From positions 3,299-67,298 of the forward strand of contig CALWCW010000066.1 of assembly GCA_944376495.1 (NCBI GenBank): a stretch of 64,000 nt of DNA, read 5' to 3'. Shown in pieces: positions 2,601-61,530 of the stretch. The notes beneath the pieces were generated by a model. The model did not search any database and was not told the DNA's origin. It worked only from the letters and a program-made list of their open reading frames with translations. The position numbers were made by a program, and so were the translations under genes. The stretch comes from an uncultured Clostridia bacterium. GTDB lineage: Bacteria; Bacillota; Clostridia; Christensenellales; UBA1242. Positions within the stretch are counted from its first letter, which is position 1; every line of letters starts with the position of its first letter.

Positions 2601-2676
2601 CTAGGAAGCAAAAATTTTGACAAGTCAAAATTTGGGTTTGCTATCGCAAACAGCACATGAATGTGCGGCTTCCTAG
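2601..2676. repeat. Cloverleaf-like nested-palindrome element, copy 1 (possible structured RNA)
   Basis: Closing stem CTAGGAAGC/GCTTCCTAG encloses three hairpins: AAATTTTGAC-aa-GTCAAAATTT, GTTTGC-tatc-GCAAAC and GCACA-tgaa-TGTGC. Followed by TTGTTTTTTT. Confidence 0.7.
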
Positions 2677-2820: not shown

Positions 2821-4557
2821 ATGGAGCAAACATTAGAAAAGTTTAAATCTCATTTGTTTAAAGTCTGTGAGGATGATTGCCTTCGTAAACTTGCACTTGA
2901 TTTTTATGAAGATTTTAGTAAGTTCTATAAGGGGCAAGTTTTTGTGCGTGAAAATTTTGAAACAATTGAGATTGATGGGGAAATTTATGAACAGGATATA
3001 GTAAAAGATTTATTTGCTGATAAAGACGAGGTTACGGCGGAAGAAATTTTCACTTATAATTTTATTAACTTTGTTGAAAAATTGGAGTTCTTTGAGAAAC
3101 AAAACCATGTTGCTGGGGTTGTTAATGCAATCAAAAAACGTATTTTATTATATAAACCAAATTCTAAACAATTTTTTAATTATATTGTTGATAAGACAAA
3201 AGACACTCCTCCTTTATTTTCAATATTTTCAGAGAGCAAATTAAATAAAGGTGTAGAACTTTCTAAAAATCAAATTGCTGAATATAAAGCAATAGCAAAA
3301 AAATATGATATTGACATGGAAGCACAAATTCAAGCGTTACGCAAGAATCCTGAAAAAATTATTAAAGAAACTTTTTATCATGAGTTTTGTCATCTATTTG
3401 AAGTGAGAAAATTTAAAAATGGCAAGTATTTAAAAAATAACATGTCCAGTAGAATAGTCGAATTAAAAAATAAGAGAAGAAAAAAATGTATGTCAGGAGT
3501 GACATCTATTGATGAAAATTTGAAAGTTAAAGAAAAATTTATTAAAGATAATGCTTGTCTTATAGGCTCAAATGCGTTATCTGAAATTTTGAATGAAGAA
3601 CTAAATCAAAATGTTTTAAGAAGATTTTCAACAAAAGATGTTTCTGGCCTATATCAATCTACCGCTTCAAAAAAACAGATGAATAGTGGGTCAACTTATA
3701 GAATTAATTATGATTTTGCAACATTGTTTAAATGTGTAATTTTTGATGAAGATATGAAAAACTTGAGATTTAATGCAAGTCATATGATTAAATGTTTTAA
3801 TCAATTTCAAATAAGTGAAGAACTTTTGTCAAAATGTATAGAAGATATAAAAACAAATCTAATAAATATTAATTATGATATTTATTTTCGAGTTCAAAAT
3901 GTTTTAGATAATTTGAAAAGTGGCAAAAATACTAGTTTTGAAATTATTAATATTTTATCTGGTGTTTTCGAAAATGCAAAAAATATGGATGATACTTTTG
4001 TCTTTTATACCAAACTTTCACCTTATTTAATCGAATTTAAAGAAAATATTCAAGCTTTATATATGGATGTCATAAAATCTTCAGTCATTCAAAAGTTAAA
4101 TGATGACCAGTTTGTTAAAGATGATGAATTTTACAAACAACTTAATCAAACTTTGGAAAACATAGATAATTTTCTTATTTATCCCGTTGAAAATATTGAA
4201 GAAAATTACTTTGATGAAAATGGAAAGAAAGAACGGAAAAATCATTCTTCTTTGAATTTATATTCGCTTGATAAATGTGTTGAAAAATTTAAAAACAAAC
4301 TTGAAAATCATAAACAAATAAAAATTTTCCATGAATTATTTCATTTGATTAAACAACATGTTGAAAATTTGCCAGATGAAGAGAGGGAGAGGGTATTATC
4401 TCATTTGACTTTCTTTGAAAAACAAGATTCTATAGATAAAAAATATGATGCTCTTCAACTATTTTTAACATTTGATGAAATTTATAATGAAAGGTCCTTT
4501 CATTTATCGCAACAAACAAACAGGCAATTAGATGATAGCGAAAAGGATTTATTTTAA
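2821..4557 (+). CDS. Hypothetical 578-aa protein with a single HExxH (zincin-like) motif
   Basis: Long uninterrupted ORF. Motif ETFYHEFCHLFEV near residue 187. No signal peptide or TM segment. K/N/E-rich and helical-looking. Confidence 0.75.
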   Translation: MEQTLEKFKSHLFKVCEDDCLRKLALDFYEDFSKFYKGQVFVRENFETIEIDGEIYEQDIVKDLFADKDEVTAEEIFTYNFINFVEKLEFFEKQNHVAGVVNAIKKRILLYKPNSKQFFNYIVDKTKDTPPLFSIFSESKLNKGVELSKNQIAEYKAIAKKYDIDMEAQIQALRKNPEKIIKETFYHEFCHLFEVRKFKNGKYLKNNMSSRIVELKNKRRKKCMSGVTSIDENLKVKEKFIKDNACLIGSNALSEILNEELNQNVLRRFSTKDVSGLYQSTASKKQMNSGSTYRINYDFATLFKCVIFDEDMKNLRFNASHMIKCFNQFQISEELLSKCIEDIKTNLININYDIYFRVQNVLDNLKSGKNTSFEIINILSGVFENAKNMDDTFVFYTKLSPYLIEFKENIQALYMDVIKSSVIQKLNDDQFVKDDEFYKQLNQTLENIDNFLIYPVENIEENYFDENGKKERKNHSSLNLYSLDKCVEKFKNKLENHKQIKIFHELFHLIKQHVENLPDEERERVLSHLTFFEKQDSIDKKYDALQLFLTFDEIYNERSFHLSQQTNRQLDDSEKDLF

Positions 4558-9066: not shown

Positions 9067-10341
9067 ATGAATAACATTTTTAGTGATTTAGAAAAATTAA
9101 AAAGAGAAATATGGCACTTGCGGGAGAGTATAAGGGCACTATCTAGTGTAAATTTAACTTCCTTACAGGCAAAAGTCAATGAACATGACAGCCAATTTCA
9201 GCAATTATCAACGGCTTTAGACTCTCAAAATCAACTTTTGCAATCTACGTCTAATTTAGTCAATTCACATGAAACATCAATTGAAAATTTAAATGAAGAT
9301 TATCAAACACTATCAGGGAATTTGACCTCGCTGGACGGAACGGTATCATCACACACGCAGTCAATTTCAAGCATCAACTCAAGTATTACCGAATTGCAAA
9401 ACAAAGATGACGATATAGATGAAGAACTTGCATTGCATTATTCAAGAATAACAAGTAATACAAATTCAATTAATTCAATAGGCGATGATATTGATAGTTT
9501 ATCAAGTAGTTATAGTCAATTGGTTGAAGCATCTAACACGTTATACAACACTTTAGGAGATTTACAAGATGATGTAGAAGAAAACTTTGGTAATATTACG
9601 ACATTGACTGGGAATATAAGCACCATAAATACTAATTTGCAAACATTGTCGGAAGATTTGACTTCGCTGGATGGAACAGTATCATCACACACGCAGTCAA
9701 TTTCAACCATTAACTCAAGTATTACCGATTTGCAAAATAAAGATGATGATATAGACGAAGAACTAGCGTTGCATTATACCAGAATAACAAGCAATACAAA
9801 CTCCTTCAATTCTTTAAATAGCACGGTGGGTTCTTTAACAAGCAGTTATTCAGAATTGGTTACCGCTGTAAACACTTTAGATTTATCATTAAATAGTGTT
9901 GAAAATTCAATTACTGGCATTGAGGAAGATATAGGCGATATACAAGAGGCTCTTCCAGAAACAATTGTTCTTTATGATAAAGACAGCACCGATTCAAATA
10001 TCAATTTGGGTTATACGAATGGTGCATTAGGAAGAACGACTTTAACTATTGATTTGTCGTCATATGAGAAATTAAGTATTTATGCAAGTTTGAATGGGTT
10101 TTCTGCTCAAACAACTATTTATCTTAAGAATAGAACTCTTACTGACCATGTCATTTTTTCTGCCGCTGATAATTTTACATCACTTCATTTTTTGAAAGTA
10201 AATATTCCATCTTCTTTAGATAAAGTAGAAGTTAAAAATATGGGTGTCTATACTTATGATTCCACTACTGGTAATGTAAGTTTTCAATATTCTTCAAGAA
10301 AAGCAGGATATTTTATTTATAGAATTGAAGGAATGAAATAA
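9067..10341 (+). CDS. Coiled-coil repeat protein with a beta-rich C-terminal domain (tail-fibre-like; hypothetical)
   Basis: 424 aa, S/T/N/L-rich with a heptad-like N-terminal 300 aa. Internal 112-aa duplication. C-terminal 130 aa are rich in aromatic and beta-type residues. No signal peptide. Confidence 0.75.
   Translation: MNNIFSDLEKLKREIWHLRESIRALSSVNLTSLQAKVNEHDSQFQQLSTALDSQNQLLQSTSNLVNSHETSIENLNEDYQTLSGNLTSLDGTVSSHTQSISSINSSITELQNKDDDIDEELALHYSRITSNTNSINSIGDDIDSLSSSYSQLVEASNTLYNTLGDLQDDVEENFGNITTLTGNISTINTNLQTLSEDLTSLDGTVSSHTQSISTINSSITDLQNKDDDIDEELALHYTRITSNTNSFNSLNSTVGSLTSSYSELVTAVNTLDLSLNSVENSITGIEEDIGDIQEALPETIVLYDKDSTDSNINLGYTNGALGRTTLTIDLSSYEKLSIYASLNGFSAQTTIYLKNRTLTDHVIFSAADNFTSLHFLKVNIPSSLDKVEVKNMGVYTYDSTTGNVSFQYSSRKAGYFIYRIEGMK
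9321..9464 (+). repeat. Intragenic direct repeat, unit 1
   Basis: About 90% identical (by eye) to 9657-9800, offset exactly 336 nt (112 codons). Encodes LTSLDGTVSSHTQSIS.INSSIT.LQNKDDDIDEELALHY.RITSNTNS. Confidence 0.9.
9657..9800 (+). repeat. Intragenic direct repeat, unit 2
   Basis: Partner of 9321-9464. Substitutions are spread over all four bases. Confidence 0.9.
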
Positions 10342-25192: not shown

Positions 25193-25398
25193 ATTAAGAC
25201 GTTGAGAAAGTAAGTAGTTTTATTATAAGCTTTCAGAGAGACAGTGGTTGGTGAAAACTGTTAAGTTTTATAAAATGAAAGACAACTTTTGAGTTTTAAA
25301 AATATTTTCTTAATGAGTGGTCATTTTGACAAATTAGGTGGCACCGCGGATAAAAATTATTCGTCCTAATGCAAATATTTTTGCGTTAGGACTTTTTG
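25193..25398 (+). promoter_or_regulatory. T-box leader (tRNA-sensing riboswitch), specifier GAC (Asp)
   Basis: AGAGA box (25235-25240 region). Specifier-loop context GAAAGACAA with GAC at 25281-25283. T-box sequence AAATTAGGTGGCACCGCGG at 25331-25349. Terminator GTCCTAATGCAA/TTGCGTTAGGAC plus TTTTT at 25363-25397. Confidence 0.85.
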
Positions 25399-32249: not shown

Positions 32250-32334
32250 TAGATTATATTGATTAAAAATATTGTAAAATAATTTTAAAAAAAATATAAT
32301 TATTTAGATTTTTAATATTTTTAACATTAATTAT

Positions 32335-32363
32335 TTGCAACAAAATATTATATATTGTATAAT
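32335..32363 (+). promoter_or_regulatory. Promoter TTGCAA-17-TATAAT directly abutting element copy 2
   Basis: -35 at 32335-32340 and -10 at 32358-32363. The closing stem of the element starts at 32365. Confidence 0.65.
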
Positions 32364-32364
32364 T

Positions 32365-32454
32365 GGGTGAGAAAATCAAATTTTGAACTTTGTTCAAAAT
32401 TTTAATAATGCTGACGCATTATTGCGTGCGTGGAAGCACGCGATTTTCTCACCC
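32365..32454. repeat. Cloverleaf-like nested-palindrome element, copy 2 (possible 5' leader structure of tilS)
   Basis: Closing stem GGGTGAGAAAATC/GATTTTCTCACCC (13 bp) encloses AAATTTTGAAC-ttt-GTTCAAAATTT, AATAATGC-tgac-GCATTATT and GCGTGC-gtggaa-GCACGC. Confidence 0.7.
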
Positions 32455-34216: not shown

Positions 34217-34300
34217 GCGGAAGTGGCGAAATGGCAGACGCGCAAGTTTCAGGTGCTTGTGAGTAAAATCATGTGGGTTCGACTCCCATCTTCCGCACCA
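34217..34300 (+). tRNA. tRNA-Leu (anticodon CAG), type II with long variable arm, CCA encoded
   Basis: Acceptor GCGGAAG/CTTCCGC. Anticodon stem CAAGT/GCTTG with loop TTCAGGT. Variable arm TGAGTAAAATCATGT. T-arm GTGGG-TTCGACT-CCCAT. 3' ACCA. Confidence 0.9.
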
Positions 34301-59352: not shown

Positions 59353-60330
59353 TTATGATTTTTTGTCATTATTTAGATTTTTTTCATTTGTATTTTCTTT
59401 ATTTATAATATCTTTAAATATTTTATAACTGACTTGTTTCGGAATGCCAACGCTTTTGTCTTCTTGAACCTCTTTTGTTTTTTCTTTTTCTTCATTTTTG
59501 TCAGTTTTATGATTTATTGAGTTATTCTTTATTTCGTTATCTGTATCTGTTTCTTCACTATAGTTTATAAGAAGAGGCTTTTCTTCGCTTTTCTGTGCTT
59601 GTTTATTTTTGTTCGTTAGTTTTGCACCTAAATTTACAACAAATTTTTCAATTTGGGATTGATATTTGTAACTGACATAAAATAAAACTAAGCAAATTAT
59701 AATAAGAACTATCCAAACAGGAATACCCCATCCGCTATACGGTATTAACTGTCCGCTTCCCAAAAAGCAGGTTGTGGCTATTGTTATAGGCCTTGTGATA
59801 AGGTTGGTGATTATAAAAAATCGATAACTCATATTGACTGTCCCTGCGACAATACATAAAATATCATCTGGGAATAATGGTAAAAGCATCATTAAAAAGT
59901 AAACGAATTTTCCTTGCCTTAATTTCTCTTCCCATTTTAACGTAGTCTTTTCTCCAGCAACCCAAACAACCAATCTTCTGCCAATCTTTTTGCCTAAAAA
60001 GAAGGCAAACAAACTTCCTGAAAAAACTGCAAGAAAACTTATACCCAAAGTTATCCAAGGACCAAATAGTAAGGTTCCTGCGACTGTTGTGACAGCTGCA
60101 GGTATTGGAATTAAGGTTGTTTGTAAAAATTGAATAATAAAAAATATTATATAACTATATGCTCCAAAACTTAATATAACATCTTTTAATTTTTCCGCAC
60201 TATCAATTTTTTCAAGTGTTCCAGTAAGTTCTAGGGGAAGGTATATTGCAAGAAATATTAAAATTAAAGCAACTATAATAATAGTGAGTTTTATTATTTT
60301 TTGTTTGGTTTCTTGTTTTATTTTTGCCAT
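59353..60330 (-). CDS. TVP38/TMEM64 (DedA-superfamily) membrane protein with an N/K/E-rich C-terminal extension
   Basis: Multiple TM segments and the LLPLFPDDILCIVAG motif typical of the family. About 90-aa low-complexity tail. Confidence 0.78.
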   Translation of the reverse strand: MAKIKQETKQKIIKLTIIIVALILIFLAIYLPLELTGTLEKIDSAEKLKDVILSFGAYSYIIFFIIQFLQTTLIPIPAAVTTVAGTLLFGPWITLGISFLAVFSGSLFAFFLGKKIGRRLVVWVAGEKTTLKWEEKLRQGKFVYFLMMLLPLFPDDILCIVAGTVNMSYRFFIITNLITRPITIATTCFLGSGQLIPYSGWGIPVWIVLIIICLVLFYVSYKYQSQIEKFVVNLGAKLTNKNKQAQKSEEKPLLINYSEETDTDNEIKNNSINHKTDKNEEKEKTKEVQEDKSVGIPKQVSYKIFKDIINKENTNEKNLNNDKKS

Positions 60331-60336
60331 ATTAAT

Positions 60337-60366
60337 ATTATAGCATATTTATTGAAAAGATTGCAA
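60337..60366 (-). promoter_or_regulatory. Promoter TTGCAA-18-TATAAT, 6 nt before the ATG (leaderless architecture)
   Basis: Minus strand: -35 at 60366-60361 and -10 at 60342-60337, then ATTAAT and the ATG at 60330. No SD. Confidence 0.65.
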
Positions 60367-60403
60367 GGTGTTTATGTTTGATTTTGTTACTTTTCAATAA
60401 AAA

Positions 60404-60493
60404 GGGCTAGGAAGCATTTTGAACTTCGTTCAAAATAGAAAAGGCTTTGCTTTTTCTGCCTTAAACTTTAAGTTTAAGGCAGCTTCCTAGCCC
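60404..60493. repeat. Cloverleaf-like nested-palindrome element, copy 3
   Basis: Closing stem GGGCTAGGAAGC/GCTTCCTAGCCC (12 bp) encloses ATTTTGAAC-ttc-GTTCAAAAT, AGAAAAGG-ctttg-CTTTTTCT and GCCTTAAAC-tttaa-GTTTAAGGC. Confidence 0.7.
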
Positions 60494-60582
60494 GCCACAT
60501 AATTTAAACATAATGTCAATTTTTATCAACTCATTGTTTTTTAACTAATTGATGTTTTTAATTAAATAAACAAAAATGGATT

Positions 60583-61530
60583 TTAAATATTTTTAATACC
60601 ATACTGTTTTAATAGTAAATTATATTCTTTTGGACAGCGAAGTTTATATGCGAAATACTTAAAAGAGGTTTTATAAATATCTTCCCAAGCCTTAACTTGA
60701 GGCAAGTATTGCTTATATAAACCAACTTGCTCCAAATAATTTCTTATAATGAGCATACTTCTTAATGAACTTTCAAGTTGCTTTAAGAATTTTTCTTTAC
60801 TTTTAAAAGCAAACGACTGGTTGTCATGAACGCAATAATGCAGTTGAGTTCCGTGAACATTTACGACATTATTTGCATTTGATAAAAAGACTATTGAATA
60901 AACATTGTCCTCACCACTTAAAAGACCTTCTGCACTTTTAGCAATTTCTTCTAAATATGGCTTACATTTTTCAAATAATGAACGAGAAATCATTTTGTTC
61001 CACACATACAAATAGTCTTGTTTTATTTGTTGATTTTCACAAAGATATTTAAAAAACTCTCCATTTTTGAAATTAATATTTTGTTTTAGAAGAAAGGAGA
61101 AGGGTTTTAAAATTTGTTTATTTTTCACGTCTGTTTTTAAAAAATCAGAGAAACAAACATCAGCATTTGAAGAAATCATCTTATTGACAACTGTTTCATA
61201 GTAATTATTTTCCACATAGTCGTCACTATCAAGAAATGCAATATAATCACCAGTGCAAGCACAAAGAGCGGTCCATCTTGCAAGATAAAGACTTTTATTT
61301 TTTTCATGATTGATAAGAGTGGCATTCTTCATTTTTTTGACAGCCTTTTGAAGTATCTTTTGACAACTATCAGTTGATGCGTCATTGACAAAAATAATCT
61401 CTAAATTATCATATGTCTGCTTTTTTAAAGAGTCTATGCAGTTTTGAAGATAGTTTTCAACGTTATAAACTGGAACCAAAACCGACACTTTATGATTGTT
61501 TGATTTTTTTCCTTTCTTTTTAAATAACAT
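60583..61530 (-). CDS. Family 2 glycosyltransferase
   Basis: VSVLVPVYNVENYLQNCIDSLKKQTYDNLEIIFVNDASTD and the DxD region LDSDD. Confidence 0.85.
   Translation of the reverse strand: MLFKKKGKKSNNHKVSVLVPVYNVENYLQNCIDSLKKQTYDNLEIIFVNDASTDSCQKILQKAVKKMKNATLINHEKNKSLYLARWTALCACTGDYIAFLDSDDYVENNYYETVVNKMISSNADVCFSDFLKTDVKNKQILKPFSFLLKQNINFKNGEFFKYLCENQQIKQDYLYVWNKMISRSLFEKCKPYLEEIAKSAEGLLSGEDNVYSIVFLSNANNVVNVHGTQLHYCVHDNQSFAFKSKEKFLKQLESSLRSMLIIRNYLEQVGLYKQYLPQVKAWEDIYKTSFKYFAYKLRCPKEYNLLLKQYGIKNI

Follow-up and report, generated by a model that had tools for sequence, protein, structure and literature searches.

The window analysed here, 64,000 nt of contig CALWCW010000066.1 from an uncultured Clostridia bacterium (assembly GCA_944376495.1), carries three copies of a small element of nested palindromes, and the third of these (copy 3) lies between a glycosyltransferase gene of the GT2 type and a gene of the DedA (VTT-domain) family. 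On the minus strand the order is as follows: the GT2 stop codon (60585-60583), an 89-nt spacer, copy 3 (60493 to 60404), TTTTTATT, the DedA promoter and the DedA ATG at 60330 (Table 1). The sequence-only reading that this work followed up had given this same order and had placed the element between a glycosyltransferase gene and a leaderless DedA gene; all of its coordinates are correct, and the gene assignments are borne out by the Pfam matches and the promoter layout. The latter is TGnTATAAT-N6-ATG without a Shine-Dalgarno sequence, and it is kept in four related species whose DedA proteins are 69-75% identical (L243 1-92, and L244, L245 and L246 at about 9940-10003; L-numbers are our labels for sequences of relatives and other samples): the extended -10 box is present and the Shine-Dalgarno sequence absent, and the -10 box lies 6 nt from the ATG in three of the four and 8 nt in the fourth. 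Because the layout is conserved in four related species, "leaderless" is a sound inference for this gene. Between the GT2 stop and the DedA promoter we found no terminator-like feature other than the copy 3 stem with TTTTTATT, and no canonical terminator in the spacer. The weak promoter-like site in the spacer is indistinguishable from chance (2 sites found, 2.5 expected from shuffles).

Table 1. Features at the copy 3 locus and positions of the other element copies (window coordinates; RBS, ribosome-binding site; ORF, open reading frame; aa, amino acids)
Feature	Position	Strand or orientation	Remarks
GT2 glycosyltransferase gene	60583-61530	minus	PF00535, E 8e-34; its transcript runs into copy 3
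Weak promoter-like site TTGATA-17-TAAATT	60501-60529	minus	9/12 matches; stops 7 nt before copy 3
Element copy 3, nested-palindrome four-way junction	60404-60493	strand-symmetric	90 bp, 40% GC (genome 29% GC)
Closing stem, left arm GGGCTAGGAAGC	60404-60415		pairs perfectly with 60482-60493; contains copy 1 CTAGGAAGC
Conserved arm P2, ATTTTGAAC-TTC-GTTCAAAAT	60416-60436		
Variable arm 2, AGAAAAGGC-TTT-GCTTTTTCT	60437-60457		one G·T on plus strand (A·C on minus)
Variable arm 3, GCCTTAAACT-TTA-AGTTTAAGGC	60458-60480		then single A before GCTTCCTAGCCC
Closing stem, right arm GCTTCCTAGCCC	60482-60493		
T-run TTTTTATT	60396-60403	minus	directly 3' of copy 3 closing stem
DedA promoter TTGCAA-18-TATAAT with upstream TG	60366-60337	minus	-10 box to ATG 60330, 6 nt
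DedA/VTT-domain gene	59353-60330	minus	PF09335, E 1e-19; downstream of copy 3
Element copy 1	2601-2676	P2 first on plus strand	between 56-aa ORF terminator and next gene's promoter
Element copy 2	32365-32454	P2 first on plus strand	between tilS -10 box (32358-32363) and RBS/ATG (32487)

Copy 3 is a four-way junction built of a 12-bp closing stem, eight of whose pairs are G-C, and three hairpins of 9-10 bp, with no more than one unpaired base at the junction. Its RNA fold has an energy of -47.8 kcal/mol (z -6.7) for the minus strand and of -52.0 kcal/mol (z -9.1) for the plus strand, with 0 of 200 shuffles folding as well in either case, and the same junction is reproduced with DNA folding parameters; over copies 1 and 3 and both strands, z ranges from -6.2 to -9.1. 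The G·T position of variable arm 2 is a perfect A-T pair in a second haplotype. The two single-nucleotide polymorphisms (SNPs) found in copy 3 in other samples are both stem transitions, of which one makes a G·U pair on the plus strand and the other on the minus strand. Choosing a strand by G·U versus A·C pairs was accordingly rejected, since the two SNPs point opposite ways and the family count (below) is 11 versus 11. An invertible segment of the phase-variable type, flipping about the 12-bp inverted repeat, was also rejected: ten other samples with an identical DedA protein share one orientation.

The folded structure has no preferred strand. When 24 distinct members of the element family (relatives are described below) were folded on both strands, the summed values were 712 and 708 base pairs and -659 and -668 kcal/mol, and G·U pairs numbered 11 on each strand (1.5%), 98.5% of the pairs being Watson-Crick; this near-total Watson-Crick pairing means that the element reads and folds alike on both strands. 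Such an absence of strand bias is unusual for an RNA made from a single strand. With a covariance model (below), copy 3 reaches 23.5 bits when read on the minus strand and 22.2 bits when read on the plus strand. In a census of gene orientation, with P2 first taken as forward, the upstream gene is co-directional in 11 cases and opposite in 10, and all four gene contexts occur. Just such a census had been named by the sequence-only reading as the test that could overturn its view of a symmetric entity, and the mixed outcome leaves that view standing. These observations support a strand-symmetric element that has no transcriptional polarity of its own and is not an oriented RNA gene.

Copy 3 had also been described as inverted. 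It is correct that on the minus strand P2 is the last arm before the T-run, whereas in copy 1, read on the plus strand, it is the first, but copy 3 is not inverted on the chromosome: the apparent inversion arises because the flanking genes there lie on the other strand. An attempt to orient copy 3 by the likeness of its flanks to those of the metagenomic relatives called family A (below) gave 5.7 on the minus strand and 1.7 on the plus strand against a background 95th percentile of 7.9, which is not significant. The plus strand is the G-rich strand throughout the window and presumably the leading strand. P2 comes first on the G-rich strand in copies 1-3 and in L244, and family A is mixed (9 versus 7 overall); a link between element orientation and replication direction is only a lead. 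Read on the strand on which P2 comes first, copy 1, L069, family A and L244 have a P2 loop rich in A, and copies 2 and 3 and two others have one rich in T. Loop polarity and arm order thus vary independently, which fits palindromes that evolve at the DNA level.

The other two copies in the window follow the same plan. With arms divided by slashes and loops set between hyphens, copy 1 is CTAGGAAGC / AAATTTTGA-CAAG-TCAAAATTT / GTTTGC-TATC-GCAAAC / GCACA-TGAA-TGTGC / GCTTCCTAG, then TTGTTTTTTT, and copy 2 is GGGTGAGAAAATC / AAATTTTGAAC-TTT-GTTCAAAATTT / AATAATGC-TGAC-GCATTATT / GCGTGC-GTGGAA-GCACGC / GATTTTCTCACCC. The conserved arm, (A)AATTTTGA...TCAAAATT(T), is the first arm on the plus strand in all three and is the sole arm whose sequence is common to all copies and to the metagenomic relatives; the closing stem of copy 3 includes the whole copy 1 stem, as had been claimed earlier (CTAGGAAGC lies inside GGGCTAGGAAGC). 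The P2 hairpin pattern has 4 matches in the window versus 0.03 expected, and a generic search for a closing stem around three adjacent hairpins places copies 1-3 far above a few weak A+T-only hits, which resemble those from shuffled sequence. A further 19.5 kb of the same genome contains zero copies, giving a density of about 3 per 83 kb. A 4-nt indel distinguishes two versions of the last arm of copy 2 in different samples (GCGTGCGTGGAAGCACGC versus GCGTGGAAGCACGC; window 32427-32444, L001 2942-2955), and both forms are still hairpins. Small ORFs that begin at a TTG after AGGAAG and end at the closing-stem TAG (19 and 23 aa; window 2617-2676 and 60419-60490, plus strand) were considered as possible type I toxins and rejected, as the frame stops after 8 codons in family A and after 6 in L069, and the peptides share only residues dictated by the palindromes.

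Relatives were sought with two patterns. The P2 palindrome, scanned over one genome per species, returned mostly unrelated lone palindromes and one true member, L069 2382-2455, in an uncultured Eubacteriales metagenome-assembled genome (MAG), whose closing stem GCAGGAAG is followed by TTTTTATAG. As a genome-wide marker the bare P2 21-mer was rejected, its matches being mostly noise from a palindrome that is common in unrelated phyla. A palindrome, GAATTTTGAACGNTGTTCAAAATTC, occurs at what seems to be the same upstream position in several Poribacteria MAGs (L008 5736, L028 1715, L030 5063, L096, L100 5396); it is probably an operator, unrelated to the window element. The pattern AGGAAG-N(1-4)-ATTTTGA-N(4-7)-TCAAAAT, scanned over metagenomes, found about 20 true members, family A, of the form GGAAGT / AAATTTTGAA-ACRAG-TTCAAAATTT / GTGC-TAAC-GCAC / GCAAAG-N(5-6)-CTTTGC / ACTTCC. 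L244 2382-2460 is a four-way junction of unrelated sequence with a P2-like arm.

A covariance model (CM R1) was built from nine family A members. Over the 767 kb searched, it matched copy 2 at 39.4 bits (E ~1e-6) and copy 1 at 33.7 bits, both full length and on the plus strand; about 150 kb from the related species compared at the DedA and tilS sites gave no match. In the resulting alignment, which is fitted to the model and includes some weak hits, 96% of cells are paired and 22 of the 26 pairs are changed on both sides; 0 of 500 shuffles matched these values, and in slid controls pairing drops to 32-60%. This covariation indicates that the fold has been conserved even as other sequences took the place of those of arms 3 and 4 and, in part, of the closing stem. 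In searches of plasmid and phage collections with BLAST no matches to the element were found, viral contigs gave only four lone P2 palindromes (in one of which the model matches just the P2 hairpin), and a literature search for the element sequences and for cloverleaf repeats in Clostridia found nothing relevant.

Family A also shows the element as a repeat. The metagenome ERZ808286 holds near-identical copies in differing flanks (L111 10168-10235, L141 8809-8876, L162 9469-9537, L171 10860-10927 and L186 1011-1079), and contigs frequently break off within them, as a multi-copy repeat would lead one to expect. The copies differ nearly only in the loop of the last arm (CTATA, CATCG, CGCTCA, CAATG, CATTCA) and in the 2 nt that precede it; this hypervariable spot is sharply localised. 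The genomes of family A carry several structured modules that are interchangeable, the four-way junction being one and the others starting GTGATG... or GTAATG...; each is set in a unit of the form [ATATAAAyT]AT[module][ArTTTGAAT]AAnCATC[AGTT-hairpin-AACT]TCCGATAA. The flanks ATATAAAyT and ArTTTGAAT pair as an outer stem, and in L114 they form the perfect ATTCAAAC/GTTTGAAT, a compensatory change. The units are about 140 nt long and stand in tandem; their linker carries a covarying hairpin, and the order of modules varies (B-A-C, C-A, V0-A-B). Such arrays were found at L110 5476-5930, L176 5200-5640, L194 1-300 and, on the reverse strand, L196 150-290, and contigs often end inside them. None of the array linker motifs was found in the organism of the window.

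The above comparisons show a family of alike structures, but how did they come to lie where they do? The spoIIE-tilS locus bears on this. The spoIIE-tilS arrangement and the tilS promoter TTGCA-N17-TATAAT are kept in relatives (TilS 68-80% identical), with the exception of L248 (TilS 75% identical, 72-nt spacer), in which a promoter match is not evident. A short leader without the element precedes the RBS in the relatives (about 27 nt in the closest), and four related species lack the insertion; in the window, the 90-nt element begins 2 nt past the -10 box, and a leader of 32 nt comes after it. The absence of copy 2 from the conserved promoter-RBS interval of the relatives identifies it as a lineage-specific insertion into the tilS 5' untranslated region (UTR), and because the promoter is conserved in relatives without the element, the promoter upstream of copy 2 is that of tilS itself. 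Upstream of DedA, the four relatives have the same leaderless promoter and neither the element nor the GT2 gene. The genes next to 17 members are housekeeping enzymes.

Two further observations concern the spoIIE-tilS spacer. In related species (compared at L247 9808-9835), a canonical hairpin and T-run come right after the spoIIE stop. In the window, no such post-spoIIE hairpin is evident by eye in 32250-32334, and the sole terminator-like hit of the spacer lies inside copy 2; because no post-stop hairpin is evident there, spoIIE transcription may read into copy 2 and tilS. Just upstream of spoIIE, L248 (2497-7460) encodes a reverse transcriptase, a rolling-circle Rep-like protein and a large serine recombinase, a mobile island that is not in the window.

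The sequence-only reading had argued for a symmetric DNA-level or structure-level entity from the T-runs that lie beside the element. The conclusion stands on the strand symmetry, the census and the insertion described above, but the T-run argument itself is weak. In the non-coding DNA of the window (29% GC), a T-run follows 17-19% of positions on any one strand, and at 33% of 85-nt non-coding intervals one side or both have a T-run that faces outward; with this 33% background the inference is not compelling, and a T-run beside two of the three copies has a p of about 0.26, within chance. The T-runs of copies 1 (plus strand) and 3 (minus strand) do both face the transcription of their host genes, for which the joint probability is about 0.03, and copy 2, in a 5' UTR, has no T-run. 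T-runs that face the host genes and the absence of any other terminator-like site at this locus suggest that copy 3 is probably the GT2 terminator. Since both T-runs are aligned with host-gene transcription, the "inverted" T-run of copy 3 is likely to be explained by the element having been co-opted locally as a terminator. Copy 1 sits beyond the 56-aa ORF's own hairpin and T-run (2463-2495) and ahead of the strong promoter at 2784-2812, in front of which it could serve as a second barrier. Across the family there is no consistent orientation downstream of a co-directional gene (11 versus 10, and copy 2 in a 5' UTR), and the elements of L244 and L176 lie inside apparent operons without a U-run.

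We favour, as on balance probable, the reading that the element is a lineage-restricted small interspersed repeat that has a terminator role at copy 3. In this reading it is a 70-90-bp repeat of nested palindromes in which a 6-13-bp terminal inverted repeat (TIR), usually ...AGGAAGY/RCTTCCT..., surrounds three hairpins with hardly any bases between them; the arm AAATTTTGA-loop-TCAAAATTT is kept in sequence, and the other two arms need only to stay palindromic. It was inserted sporadically into intergenic DNA in either orientation to genes, as copy 2 and the lack of the element at orthologous sites show, and, when co-transcribed, gives the host mRNA a very stable four-way junction. In the GT2 3' UTR, the 12-bp G+C-rich stem of copy 3 followed by UUUUUAUU would end transcription and shield the 3' end of the transcript, a terminator role of the kind suggested for the pneumococcal SPRITE repeats (PMC3049150), and termination there would insulate the leaderless DedA promoter 30 nt downstream. 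On the plus strand copy 1 would act likewise; copy 2 lies in the tilS 5' UTR, has no U-run and would instead cap the 5' end. As to what might read P2, its loop varies from 3 to 7 nt while its stem is conserved, which rules out a duplex operator of fixed spacing and makes recognition as a hairpin, in single-stranded DNA or RNA, more likely; one may speculate that a trans-acting enzyme that binds single-stranded-DNA hairpins is involved.

The main alternative is that these are independently transcribed, tRNA-sized cloverleaf small RNAs (sRNAs) with their own promoters, in which a protein would bind P2 and the variable arms and loops would set the targets. A -10-like box does stand 5-8 nt before the closing stem (TATAAA at copy 1, TTGCAA-17-TATAAT at copy 2, TTGATA-17-TAAATT on the minus strand at copy 3), but the copy 2 promoter is that of tilS, conserved in relatives without the element, and reading from the apparent promoters gives arm orders that differ between copies 1 and 3. 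The TATAAAyTAT that lies upstream in family A could likewise be taken for a promoter; it was rejected as one, since no -35 box accompanies it, it forms an outer stem with the ArTTTGAAT that lies downstream, and it covaries in L114. The strong covariation, the hypervariable P4 loop among near-identical copies and the position of L069, which lies between divergent genes and yet has a T-run after it, would all suit an sRNA; the rarity (1.5%) and strand symmetry of G·U pairs and the lack of an Rfam or tRNA match do not, and we regard this alternative as improbable. Ordinary oriented RNA signals in cis, a branched intrinsic terminator family or 5' leaders selected site by site and not mobile, would account for the T-runs of copies 1 and 3 on the host-gene strand and for the place of copy 2 in a 5' UTR. 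Such signals would not be expected to show the mixed gene orientation (11 versus 10) or to lack a U-run in copy 2, L244 and family A; the orthologous sites in relatives without the element use plain hairpin terminators and short UTRs, and independent terminators would not have closing-stem and arm sequences in common. This explanation is distinctly improbable.

That P2 is a duplex DNA operator of a dimeric regulator, the other palindromes being incidental, is in our judgement very improbable. Its half-sites TTTTGAA/TTCAAAA presumably resemble the inverted repeats of CRP/FNR- or Rex-type regulators, and many unrelated genomes contain this 21-mer as a palindrome standing alone, but half-site spacing differs among copies by several bases, unfit for a dimer of fixed geometry, the palindrome never occurs in this lineage without a closing stem and two more hairpins, and the neighbouring genes have no common function. 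A more far-reaching possibility, which we consider rather unlikely, is that some mobilisation or cassette-shuffling system, so far undescribed, uses the elements and arrays as its substrates in uncultured low-GC gut Clostridia, or else that the elements are a new multi-copy class of protein-bound cloverleaf RNA. In the cassette-shuffling form of this idea, an enzyme may recognise P2 on folded single-stranded DNA and the inner arms may flip or be exchanged, like the flip/flop of adeno-associated virus (AAV) or integron cassettes; if a dedicated hairpin-recognising enzyme did exist, the arrays of the relatives would point towards new mobile-cassette biology.

Several observations weigh against the reading we favour, an interspersed repeat with a terminator role at copy 3. 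Regarding mobility, we see no target-site duplication at the approximate borders of copies 1-3, L069 and L244. No transposase was found in the about 83 kb of this genome and the flanks of 17 loci that were searched; none recurs among the 93 neighbouring proteins, and no mobile-element family does so among the 25 commonest families near the elements. The three window copies share only P2 and, in the case of copies 1 and 3, also 9 bp of the closing stem (about 20-30 nt in all), and a typical MITE (miniature inverted-repeat transposable element) has near-identical copies. Compensatory change is pervasive in arms 3 and 4, as expected of a selected RNA structure, and within the species copy 3 has 2 SNPs in its 90 nt versus 1 in 162 nt of flank, with no sign of constraint. 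The metagenome census rests on a seed pattern that demands AGGAAG beside P2, and some of its loci may be one site in different samples. As a terminator, copy 3 departs from the canonical form, a short G+C-rich hairpin that has a loop of 3-8 nt and a U-tract 0-2 nt after it, in that its loop is a 66-nt domain of three hairpins, and a consensus scan calls nothing there.

Other features of the window were noted in passing. Between argS and copy 1 lies a small transcription unit (2240-2495) with a promoter at 2240-2268, an RBS, a 56-aa ORF (2292-2462) and its own hairpin and T-run. The promoter at 2784-2812, TTGACA-17-TATAAT with a TG and 12/12 matches, stands 8 nt before the ATG of a 578-aa ORF (2821-4557), which has no Pfam match and is a second leaderless or near-leaderless gene in the window. 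A 187-nt direct repeat (9290-9476 and 9626-9812) has 84% identity between its copies, which are 336 nt apart. A T-box leader (25193-25371, plus strand, 102.7 bits) and a tRNA-Leu(CAG) (34217-34300, plus strand) are ordinary and unrelated to the element.

Small palindromic repeats of the interspersed kind influence transcription, the stability of mRNA and the quality of assemblies, but they are almost unstudied outside cultured pathogens; the present host lineage is one of uncultured, spore-forming gut Clostridia of 29% GC. Copy 2 is a concrete example of a repeat that has landed between a promoter, itself conserved, and a ribosome-binding site (tilS), and copy 3 is a second case, in which a repeat is apparently the sole terminator ahead of a leaderless gene (DedA). 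Annotators should not label these elements sRNA or tRNA-like genes, and the elements account for contig breaks in related metagenome assemblies.

How does the element compare with known structured RNAs and repeats? In the tRNA cloverleaf the acceptor stem is 7 bp long, there are D, anticodon and T arms, and bases of the T-loop and D-loop are conserved. The element has arms of 9-13 bp and loops of 3 nt, and ARAGORN and Rfam give only the tRNA-Leu at 34217; a tRNA or tRNA-like identity was rejected. At gathering thresholds, Rfam finds over the window only the T-box and the tRNA, both away from the element; in a permissive search the best hit to the element is hveRNA, at 29 bits versus a threshold of 90, and two arrays of the relatives gave no hits. 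Like intrinsic terminators, copies 1 and 3 have a T-run on the transcribed strand immediately after a G+C-rich stem; unlike them, the "loop" is 57-66 nt of three hairpins, stem and arm sequences are common across sites, and other copies lack a T-run or lie in a 5' UTR. The inverted terminal repeats (ITRs) of parvoviruses such as AAV are T-shaped nested palindromes with flip and flop forms and the layout A-[B B']-[C C']-A'. The likeness is one of form only: in the window family, arm order relative to the flanks and P2 loop polarity vary with the fold unchanged. These elements differ from ITRs in being chromosomal and internal and in having three inner arms, and no flip/flop polymorphism was seen at copy 3 in 10 samples.

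Repetitive extragenic palindromes (REPs) are single imperfect palindromes of 20-40 nt with a conserved head motif and hundreds of copies, mainly in Proteobacteria. They and the bacterial interspersed mosaic elements (BIMEs) act as mRNA 3' stabilisers or attenuators and are thought to be mobilised as single-stranded hairpins by RAYT (HUH Y1) transposases, which act in trans and read one hairpin. The window elements resemble them as extragenic palindromes, without target duplication, that are conserved as hairpins, and differ in being four nested perfect palindromes arranged as a cloverleaf, 75-90 bp long and present at 3 per ~83 kb; the single imperfect palindrome, head motif and high copy number of REP/BIME are not what was found here. 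The Correia repeat enclosed elements (CREEs) of Neisseria are 100-156 bp long, end in TIRs of 26 bp, duplicate a TA target and occur in over 100 near-identical copies (PMC2649163), and CREEs and MITEs form an RNA hairpin from either strand that alters the expression or stability of neighbouring genes (PMC2649163, PMC10969869, PMC2229807). The present family is like these in its terminal inverted repeats, lack of coding capacity and insertion in either orientation, and unlike them in its TIR of 6-13 bp, the lack of a visible target duplication, its 3 copies per ~83 kb and its diverged interiors. The terminal inverted repeats and high pairing typical of MITEs are present (perfect closing stems of 9-13 bp, 98.5% Watson-Crick pairs), and insertion is shown for copy 2 and near-identical copies for ERZ808286, yet the window copies share only about 20-30 nt.

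The nearest parallels in a Firmicute are the pneumococcal BOX, RUP and SPRITE repeats, which are short, non-coding, highly paired, lineage-restricted intergenic repeats transcribed only with their neighbours (Croucher et al. 2011, PMC3049150). SPRITE resembles Rho-independent terminators and has been proposed to be co-opted as such; BOX is modular (boxA, boxB repeated n times, boxC); and these repeats are biased to the coding strand, about 61-63% (PMC3049150). Both they and the window elements are short paired intergenic repeats of a Firmicute that are confined to one lineage and almost missing from its relatives, and BOX and the relatives of the window element are both modular. There is, however, no sequence similarity: the window element is a perfect four-way junction, whereas theirs is one long stem-loop, their copies align over their full length, whereas the window copies share one arm and part of the closing stem, and the window family has no coding-strand bias. 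Modules of defined sequence such as boxA, boxB and boxC were not found, and only the principle of the modular array is in common. Since the element departs from each of these systems in sequence, size, target duplication or copy similarity, it is a member of no named repeat family. We therefore class it as an element that works like the BOX/RUP/SPRITE, Correia, REP/BIME and MITE repeats and is distinct from them in its perfect four-way junction, its single conserved arm and its full strand symmetry.

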